Below are positions 21,001 to 24,000 of a stretch of DNA of 51,153 nt, in pieces. A program made the position numbers. Source of the DNA: a virus (Duplodnaviria > Heunggongvirae > Uroviricota > Caudoviricetes); the IMG/VR virus record IMGVR_UViG_2939521961_000005. One strand, written 5' to 3'. Positions within the stretch are counted from its first letter, which is position 1; each line of letters begins with the position of its first letter.

Positions 21001-24000
21001 AATAATTGCTACGGTCAGGTATCCCGGCGAGATCAGGAAAGTGCGCTGGCGTGCTGGGGTATCGACAGATAAGCAGAATATTTTGCTTAAAAATGACGTT
21101 GGCCAACGCGGGCAGATAACACGAAATCCTGCGAACTGGCAAAACCCAAGTGAATAAAAGTAAAAACCCCGTTTGTTGGTTGCAAACGGGGTTTTATGTT
21201 TATGGCAGTAAGCTATGGGAGGCTGCCTTGATTGATTTTAGCAAACTGATTAGGGAGTTGCGACTCATGATTAGTCAATTACCAAACTGGAAATTTTTGC
21301 TGGTCTGGAGCATCCCTTTTTTATGGGTAGTATCCCAGTGAATTGTGGCAATTAAGGGGTAGCTATGTCAGACAAACTCATAATGCTGGCGAAGATCCTC
21401 TGTGTAATCGTCGGCATTTCATTTTCACTAATGCTGGTTGCTCTTTTTCTTTCCATGGGCTGGATGATGTTGTCTTCGTCGGGGCTGCTGGGGTGAGCAT
21501 AAACCGAATGCTTTCCGCGTTTACCGTTATTCTGCTGGTGGTCTGTGGTGCGCTTAGTCTGGGGCTGAATCATTACCGCGATAACGCCATCACCTACAAA
21601 GCGCAGCGCGATAAAAAAGCCAGTGAGCTGGATCTGGCAAACGCAACCATTACTGATATGCAGGTGCGCCAGCGCGATGTTGCTGCGCTCGATGCAAAAT
21701 ACTCGAGGGAATTAGCCGATGCGAGAGCTGAAAATGAAACTCTGCGTGCTGATGTTGCCGCTGGTCGTAAGCGCCTGCGGATCAACGCCACCTGCCCCGG
21801 TACCGTGCGTGAAGCCACCGGCACCTCCGGCGTGGGCAATGATGCCGCCGTCGAACTCTCTCCGGTTGCTGGACGAAACGTTCTCGGTATCAGAGACGGA
21901 ATCATCAGCGACCAGGCAGCATTGAGAATGCTTCAGGAATATATCCGCACTCAGTGTATTAACTAGTATTTTTGTTATTCGGAGAATGCATGAAGAAATT
22001 ATTGGTAACCGTAAAGCCTTTTCAGGGAACAATTCCGTTCCGTATTTTGCAGCGTGGTCGTGTTCTTGTTGAAGGTTCGTTCAGTGGTAAATGTACGCAA
22101 TTACACTCCCGGACCTTTCAGGTGAATGCCACGAATGAAGAGCTAACCGTTGAGTGTACGATGAATGCCGCTAAATGCCGCATGGTATCCGCTGCATTAC
22201 AGCCAGTGTGTTGAGCGACCTTATTATTCATGCGCGGTATTGTCGCCGTATTCCTGCTGAGGTAGCCTGAGTTTAACGGACACTCCTTCCTGAAATAGAA
22301 TGGCATCAGAAGGAGCTAATAATGAGCAGAAAAACCCAACGTTACTCTAAAGAGTTCAAAGCCGAAGCTGTCAGAACGGTTCTTGAAAATCAACTTTCGA
22401 TCAGTGAAGGCGCTTCCCGATTATCTCTTCCTGAAGGCACTTTAGGACAATGGGTTACCGCCGCCAGAAAAGGGCTCGGTACTCCTGGTTCCCGCACGGT
22501 GGCTGAACTGGAATCTGAAATTCTGCAACTGCGTAAGGCGTTAAATGAAGCTCGCCTTGAGCGAGATATATTAAAAAAAGCAACAGCGTATTTTGCACAG
22601 GAGTCGCTGAAAAATACGCGTTAATCGAACAATGGCGACAACAATTTCCCATTGAAGCGATGTGTCAGGTATTTGGTGTATCCAGGAGCGGTTATTACAA
22701 CTGGGTACAGCATGAACCCTCAGACAGAAAACAAAGTGATGAGCGGCTAAAACTGGAGATTAAGGTGGCACATATCCGCACTCGCGAAACATATGGAACC
22801 CGGCGGCTCCAGACGGAGCTGGCAGAGAATGGCATCATCGTTGGTCGTGACCGACTGGCACGTCTTCGTAAGGAGCTAAGGCTACGCTGTAAGCAGAAAC
22901 GCAAGTTCAGAGCGACTACGAACTCGAACCACAATCTGCCAGTTGCGCCAAATCTGCTGAACCAGACGTTCGCTCCTACAGCACCAAATCAGGTCTGGGT
23001 GGCGGACCTGACGTATGTTGCCACACAGGAGGGATGGTTGTACCTCGCTGGCATCAAAGATGTTTATACGTGCGAAATTGTCGGCTACGCCATGGGAGAG
23101 CGCATGACAAAAGAGCTGACAGGTAAAGCTCTGTTTATGGCGCTCAGGAGCCAGCGCCCACCTGCCGGGCTAATCCACCACTCTGATCGAGGTTCACAGT
23201 ACTGCGCATACGATTACCGGGTCATACAGGAGCAGTTTGGTCTGAAAACATCAATGTCGCGTAAAGGTAACTGTTACGACAACGCTCCGATGGAAAGCTT
23301 CTGGGGAACGCTGAAAAATGAGAGCCTGAGCCACTATCGTTTTAATAACCGGGATGAAGCCATCTCAGTAATACGGGAATACATTGAGATTTTCTACAAT
23401 CGTCAGCGTCGTCACTCTCGTCTGGGGAATATCTCCCCGGCAGCCTTCAGGGAAAAATATCATCAGATGGCTGCTTAAAAAAAGAACAAATGGTAGTGTC
23501 CGCTATTGCCAGTACACCTCATGCATTAACAGAGACCGCAGCCCGACCGGGAGAATCCTCTGCGCGAGTGTGCGGGGATAATCAAAAACGATACACACCG
23601 GGGTTTACCGCGTTAACGGAGCGCGGCGTTGTCCCCTCATGGTCGCTGGTCCGGTGCGATGGTGGAAGAAGCCGGATGTTTATCACTATTAATTGATAAC
23701 ACAGAAATGGATTCATTGATTTTCAGCACGTTTTTGTATTCGTATTATTGAACATCTGTTTATTTTACTTTTAACATATTGATAATAAAAAGAGCTGTAA
23801 ATCTTTAGATGAGTCGATTTTGTCCGGGGAAGTTCAAATGGATTTTATGCTGACGGTTTCTGGTGTGGTTATCCTGTCCATTGCTTATACTGCAGATAAA
23901 TATGGCTGCCATTTGTTATCACGTATTGGCGCTTATTGCTCGTTGATGCTGATTTTCTCGTCGCTTTTTTTTGAGTAAGTTATATTAATTATAACAAATA

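Follow-up and report, generated by a model that had tools for sequence, protein, structure and literature searches.

IS600 is an insertion sequence (IS) of the IS3 family, IS3 subgroup, which was first described in Shigella sonnei and is amplified in Shigella, in enteroinvasive Escherichia coli and in the major serotypes of those E. coli that make Shiga toxin (STEC). The elements that it resembles, IS911, IS3, IS2 and IS150, have TG...CA terminal repeats, an orfA (helix-turn-helix and coiled coil) and an orfB (DDE) that are joined through a -1 frameshift at an A6G/A7-type motif, and target duplications of 3–4 bp (PMC6211511, PMC7780238). They differ from IS600 in sequence. Copy-out/paste-in transposition, described in PMC7780238, is presumed to be common to these elements and IS600; its biochemical steps were demonstrated for IS911 and IS2 and would apply to IS600 by analogy. 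IS600 is one of five elements that are expanded in all Shigella species (PMC7373316), and it is amplified and active in the major STEC lineages and serotypes, where the IS-excision enhancer (IEE) can help to excise it (PMC9397093). In the lambdoid and Shiga toxin (Stx) prophages of enterohaemorrhagic E. coli (EHEC), IS629/IS1203 and other copies of IS600 are likewise scattered IS3-family elements that create strain polymorphism and can be removed by IEE (PMC9397093, PMC10042803). Here we describe a copy of IS600 in the IMG/VR virus record IMGVR_UViG_2939521961_000005. The whole stretch that was analysed, 51,153 nucleotides long and referred to below as the window, comes from an EHEC-type E. 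coli and is a lambdoid prophage of the non-Stx kind, with its nearest prophage relatives in O26-type strains. The copy shares with the known IS600 its length of 1264 bp, its layout of two open reading frames (ORFs) with a frameshift, and its 3-bp duplication, and differs in the location of the insertion only; compared with the other IS600 copies of EHEC prophages, it has a different position and lies in a prophage without stx. It is almost certainly an intact IS600 that recently inserted into a non-coding spacer of this prophage, apparently competent for transposition and most likely neutral to its host prophage.

Positions 22258–23521 (+) of the window hold a complete 1264-bp IS600 of the IS3 family, as determined by reading the sequence and aligning the element ends. 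The element starts at 22258 with TGAGGTAGCC... and ends at 23521 with ...GTACACCTCA, and it is the only copy of IS600 in the window. Its ends and the flanking duplications are as follows.

22255..22257, no strand: left target-site duplication TGC (read from the sequence; a single TGC is found at the empty site of strains 10153 and War)
22258..22284, + strand: left terminal inverted repeat (IRL), with the 5'-TG start (repeat search, end alignment)
23495..23521, + strand: right terminal inverted repeat (IRR), with the CA-3' end (repeat search, end alignment)
23522..23524, no strand: right target-site duplication TGC (read from the sequence; empty-site comparison)

According to the repeat search, IRL and IRR are imperfect repeats with arms of 27 nt that are 70% complementary. 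The outermost 6 nt of the two ends pair perfectly (TGAGGT...ACCTCA), and their TG...CA tips are typical for the IS3 family. The boundaries of the element are independent of these repeats, because the same 1264-bp unit recurs at 100% identity in many other contexts; it has unrelated flanks at every related locus that was fetched, and its length there is always 1264 bp. While an accidental 3-bp repeat alone has a chance of 1/64, a chance origin of the TGC repeat is excluded because every one of eight further IS600 insertions in this spacer has a 3-bp duplication of its own. An earlier note on this DNA, made from the sequence alone, had placed an insertion at 22255–23524; these coordinates are exact and correspond to the IS plus both TGC copies, and the imperfect terminal inverted repeats, the flanking TGC direct repeats and the 1264-bp length that it described are all confirmed to the base.

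The interior of the element encodes the two transposase ORFs and several signals that are predicted to control their expression.

22273..22301, + strand: promoter-like site, with a -35 box TTAACG at 22273, a 17-nt spacer and a -10 box TAGAAT at 22296–22301 (consensus scan, 9/12 matches)
22283..22315, + strand: predicted RNA hairpin whose 3' arm includes the orfA Shine-Dalgarno sequence AAGGAG at 22310–22315 (-10.7 kcal/mol, z = -1.8)
22322..22624, + strand: orfA, 100 amino acids (aa), helix-turn-helix DNA-binding protein (Pfam HTH_Tnp_1, E = 1.5e-20, 73.6 bits against a cut-off of 24.1)
22573..22580, + strand: slippery motif A AAA AAA G (A7G) for a programmed -1 frameshift (read from the sequence)
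22582..22622, + strand: stem-loop just 3' of the slippery site (folding energy -12.6 kcal/mol, z = -3.26; also found as an inverted repeat)
22660 (first ATG)..23478 (stop), + strand: orfB, catalytic DDE domain (Pfam rve, E = 3.2e-26, 92 bits; also HTH_21, rve_2 and rve_3)

The reading frame of orfB lies at -1 relative to orfA and is open from the slippery site onward, and a -1 shift at A7G gives a single open OrfAB of 385 aa. OrfAB matches the NCBIfam equivalog model NF033516, 'IS3 family transposase', with 414.5 bits (cut-off 160) over model positions 1–369 of 369. In OrfAB numbering, the catalytic DD(35)E arrangement consists of D229, D289 and E325, the last two separated by 35 residues, and a lysine, K332, follows the glutamate at +7. 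RefSeq labels identical IS600 copies 'programmed frameshift', which is an annotation rather than a test. None of 200 shuffles equalled the folding energy of the hairpin at 22582–22622, and this hairpin, placed as a frameshift stimulator usually is, is likely to be one. The copy has all of the sequence traits of the IS3 family, among them TG...CA imperfect inverted repeats, as given in PMC6211511. Its length of 1264 bp is within the roughly 1.2–1.55 kb of the family, and its duplication, TGC on both sides and one TGC in the empty sites, is within the range of 3–4 bp. It also has the TG...CA ends, two consecutive ORFs of which orfB is read in the -1 frame, a slippery motif towards the end of orfA, a helix-turn-helix in OrfA and a DDE domain in OrfB.

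The promoter-like site in the left end of the element is presumably the transposase promoter; in total, promoter-like sites in the region are no more frequent than in shuffled sequence. The upstream hairpin at 22283–22315 was matched or exceeded in folding by 14 of 200 shuffles. The IS's own transcript is predicted to start downstream of the 5' arm, and by a weakly supported analogy with other insertion sequences the hairpin would block the translation of transcripts that enter from outside.

Of 5,426 complete E. coli genomes, 3,487 have matches to the 1264-bp unit, in 4,142 records altogether, and full-length matches reach 100% identity and carry the RefSeq label 'IS3-like element IS600 family transposase'. 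Identity to copies on Shigella sonnei plasmids is 99.8–99.9% over all 1264 bp, and nucleotide identity to the copies of S. flexneri, S. boydii and S. dysenteriae is 99.3–99.5%. The exact OrfA and OrfB sequences are each present on at least 1000 public contigs. In public records OrfA bears the name 'IS600 ORF1-like protein'. OrfB falls into a cluster with 'IS3-like element IS600 family transposase'. OrfA is also 98% identical to the 'IS600 ORF1' of S. dysenteriae. By the naming convention of ISfinder, copies with at least 95% nucleotide identity along their full length are the same element. Judged by its sequence identity to annotated copies, rather than to the ISfinder or GenBank type sequence, the element is IS600 itself, beyond being IS600-like. 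The original assignment as an IS600-like member of the IS3 family is borne out and can be sharpened to IS600, by the 100% identity to annotated copies and the 414.5-bit match to NF033516.

In order to compare the locus with uninterrupted relatives, the empty site was reconstructed as the window minus 22258–23524 (the IS and one TGC), which leaves 49,886 bp. This sequence has no mismatches to E. coli strain 10153 over 6000 bp centred on the insertion point. A prophage of E. coli strain War has the same length of 49,886 bp and is 99.95% identical to the reconstruction. The comparison with empty-site homologues is thus passed cleanly, by the absence of mismatches to 10153 and by the equal length of the War prophage. 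We give practically no credence to a chance resemblance or an assembly artefact as the origin of the feature, since the element is full length, agrees with many IS600 copies at 100% identity, has exact boundaries and leaves a perfect empty site on reconstruction. The insertion is very recent relative to the divergence of the strains, because the copy is identical to others and its flanks are identical to the empty-site alleles. That it was relatively recent had been proposed from the intact duplication, and the near-isogenic empty-site prophages, together with zero divergence from other IS600 copies, bear this out.

Queries with the left and right junctions did not find this exact insertion in any of the 5,426 complete E. 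coli genomes. Among GTDB representative genomes, IMG/VR and JGI metagenomes there was likewise no match to the left junction, queried as an exact 32-mer. These searches bear on a second route of arrival, in which a different lambdoid prophage, with IS600 already in place at the same site, passed it on by homologous recombination. In EHEC genomes the spacer occurs in nearly identical form in many prophages, and the comparison with War has a feature that resembles recombination, a cluster of single-nucleotide polymorphisms (SNPs) in the tail genes. However, the junction is missing from all of the collections searched, no base in the surrounding 6 kb differs from the empty-site allele, and such a transfer only shifts the same transposition event to another prophage. 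We therefore regard it as very improbable, and direct transposition into this prophage as the preferred explanation. As for the SNP cluster itself, the window and War differ by 25 mismatches, nearly all of them confined to about 1.1 kb of tail genes, at 37650–38720 of the IS-free sequence and about 38917–39987 of the window (+1267). From the sequence, the pattern resembles a short tract of recombination, in a prophage that is identical elsewhere.

Direct transposition would proceed as follows. A -1 frameshift at A7G would fuse OrfA (helix-turn-helix) to OrfB (DDE) and so produce the OrfAB transposase, which would bind the IS ends. Copying out of IS600 would give a circle in which the two ends abut, and this circle would be pasted into a staggered 3-bp cut in the target, the repair of which would give rise to the TGC duplication. 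This pathway is modelled on the IS3 family (IS911, IS2 and IS3), and what is seen at the locus is its product only: intact ends, a duplication and a precise empty site. Nothing contradicts this account, in which frameshifting, circle formation and the current activity of this copy are inferred from the family. Neutrality to the prophage is likewise inferred, as the most likely outcome, and the predictions of the promoter and of a hairpin over the Shine-Dalgarno sequence are weak. The copy should still be able to move, because its inverted repeats and its duplication are intact, and in strains that carry IEE its excision is possible (PMC9397093).

The effect of the insertion on the prophage depends on its surroundings, of which the following genes are the most relevant.

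545-1663, - strand (opposite to all the other genes listed): integrase
13778-14320, + strand: Q-like antiterminator
16080-16332, + strand: two tRNA genes
19645-19851, + strand: holin
20539-21072, + strand: endolysin (lysozyme)
21508-21966, + strand: Rz
21719-21925, + strand: Rz1, embedded in Rz
21990-22214, + strand: ORF of 74 aa without assigned function, between Rz and the IS
24335-24700, + strand: HNH endonuclease
24990-25553, + strand: small terminase subunit
25550-27211, + strand: large terminase subunit

This order confirms the layout of a lambdoid late region, with a Q-type antiterminator, holin, endolysin and Rz/Rz1 upstream of the element and terminase downstream, all on one strand. 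IS600 begins 43 bp past the stop codon of the 74-aa ORF, and the HNH-terminase packaging genes follow about 0.8 kb downstream of it. An AT-rich stretch lies downstream of the IS, with a GC fraction of 0.29 at 23700–23849. The element had been described as sitting between Rz and the AT-rich spacer before the packaging module; the order of lysis genes, AT-rich stretch and terminase holds, but the 74-aa ORF intervenes after Rz.

IS600 is co-oriented with the late operon (+), and its insertion lengthens the late transcription unit by 1267 bp. In the empty-site genomes, no annotated gene is present at the insertion point, and no terminator-like site was found on the + strand inside IS600. Several ways in which the insertion could have disturbed regulation were considered and rejected. 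A search of Rfam over 19500–25500 for a disrupted non-coding RNA gave no credible result, its one hit being VR-RNA (E = 0.42, 20 bits against a gathering score of 100). No terminator or promoter is predicted at the insertion point of the empty-site sequence, and no new outward or hybrid promoter was detected at the right IS junction in comparison with that sequence. The insertion interrupts no gene, and on these grounds its effect on the prophage is most likely neutral.

The prophage carries an unrelated lesion further downstream. Its prohead-protease/major-capsid fusion gene (27275–29212) has a 1-nt deletion in a G run at about 27397, compared with the intact 1938-bp gene of strain 10153, and the deletion shifts the frame after about 41 codons. 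The same deletion is found in the IS-free strain War, where RefSeq marks the gene as frameshifted. Any loss of phage function therefore predates IS600, because War, with no IS, has the same capsid frameshift; to judge by the gene sequence, the prophage is probably defective regardless of IS600. In the neighbouring portal region there are two ORFs with a 4-bp overlap, at 29423–30787 (454 aa, complete Phage_portal domain) and 30784–32007 (407 aa, no Pfam domain). A broken portal gene was considered as a second defect, as RefSeq flags a frameshift here in War, but phage PPyecE_EH1910 is annotated with the same two-ORF layout, which may be the normal state, and it was not counted. In strain 10153 (locus L007, 29467–49901), a Mu-like prophage lies inside the portal gene of the same lambdoid prophage, as an independent disruption.

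Q-modified RNA polymerase is established in lambda biology to pass terminators. This matters for the suggestion that IS600 is a polar block, which uncouples lysis from the packaging and head genes and helps to cripple or domesticate the prophage. Such a role would fit the position of the IS between Rz and the terminase genes, within a presumed single late transcription unit, and there is a related case in which IS600 upstream of the q gene was proposed to alter the induction of an O26 Stx1 phage (PMC10042803). Here, however, the insertion is intergenic and runs in the direction of the late genes, it contributes no terminator-like hairpin on the + strand, a terminator would in any case be read through by Q-modified polymerase, and the protease/capsid frameshift common to IS-free War makes any defect older than the IS. 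A polar effect is accordingly very unlikely. The idea that the insertion may separate the lysis genes from the downstream late genes, raised in the earlier note, holds in the physical sense of 1267 extra bp but not in a functional sense, given its co-oriented intergenic position, the upstream Q-like antiterminator and the prior capsid frameshift.

The spacer into which IS600 inserted has received the same element more than once. Between the spanin genes and the HNH gene (window 22215–24334, with the IS removed), at least eight other independent full-length IS600 insertions were found in related EHEC prophages. Relative to the site in the window, they lie at -16, -13, +31, +53, +146, +150, +457 and +554 bp, and their 3-bp duplications are, in the same order, ATT, GTC, GAA, GGG, GAA, CCG, GTT and GTC. 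The loci with IS600 copies in the spacer are L002, L003, L004, L005 and L008–L012. One related locus has a nested, partly deleted IS600 arrangement. An orientation bias of the spacer insertions was considered and rejected, as the two junction queries returned 16 same-orientation and 12 reverse-orientation records.

Some IS3-family elements are reported to target sequences that resemble inverted repeats. In the present case, the spacer from Rz to HNH could be a preferred IS600 target, recognized by a resemblance to the IS ends or by its DNA structure, rather than dispensable DNA that was hit at random. Nine independent sites, including that of the window, fall in about 570 bp of homologous prophages and in both orientations. 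Five of them (the window's counted) are within 70 bp of one another, for which a simulation under a uniform model gave p = 0.016; this clustering weakens to p = 0.09 without the window's own site. The sites tend to coincide with resemblance to IS ends (permutation, nominal p about 0.005), but the best matches to the inverted repeats are no better than those in shuffled sequence, where 253/300 and 159/300 shuffles score as high or higher, and the score of the site in the window equals the background median. Both statistics are post hoc, and the sites are non-independent and uncorrected for phylogeny. Moreover, EHEC genomes have many copies of the spacer and 10–40 copies of IS600, so that permissive non-coding DNA would collect hits without any targeting. 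Preferential targeting is on balance unlikely. Rather less likely still is its stronger form, in which the spacer of about 0.6 kb between the spanin genes and HNH/terminase is a true IS600 hotspot, guided by a GTGTCCG-like box of the inner IS ends or by local DNA structure; if it were one, the copy in the window would be one case of an event that recurs predictably and shapes the decay of prophages. The clustering is explained, with no need for targeting, by a permissive non-coding region that is present in many copies per EHEC genome, and targeting is a lead only.

IS600 is an element that is already known, and nothing in this copy or its mechanism is new; nor does the locus reveal a new kind of interaction between phage and IS. 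It adds one more example of IS600 activity in EHEC prophages, with little importance beyond annotation. Its practical value is in the junction, which is a clean strain-specific marker that can be used for IS-based typing or for tracing the lineage of the source strain.

Other parts of the prophage are also of note. The region 16080–19354, between the phage tRNA genes and a nanS-like esterase gene, is the place of stxAB in Stx phages; here it encodes a TerB-family gene (16502–16933) and a DUF3927 gene. The first of the phage tRNAs is called Met by ARAGORN, from its CAT anticodon, and Ile by RefSeq, the latter being as expected for a lysidine-modified tRNA-Ile2. A second insertion sequence, an IS66-family element at 46415–49030 that is annotated in relatives as ISCro1, includes tnpA, tnpB and a transposase of 523 aa. 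It lies between the tail-fibre gene (45040–46359), which ends just before it, and a short ORF labelled 'tail fibre C-terminal domain', and it is older than the IS600 insertion because it is common to related strains. At the right end of the prophage, 49792–51153 (-) holds a gene for which the RefSeq annotation in strain War is type III secretion effector EspK, and the presence of this gene identifies the prophage as an effector-carrying one of the 'exchangeable effector locus' type.

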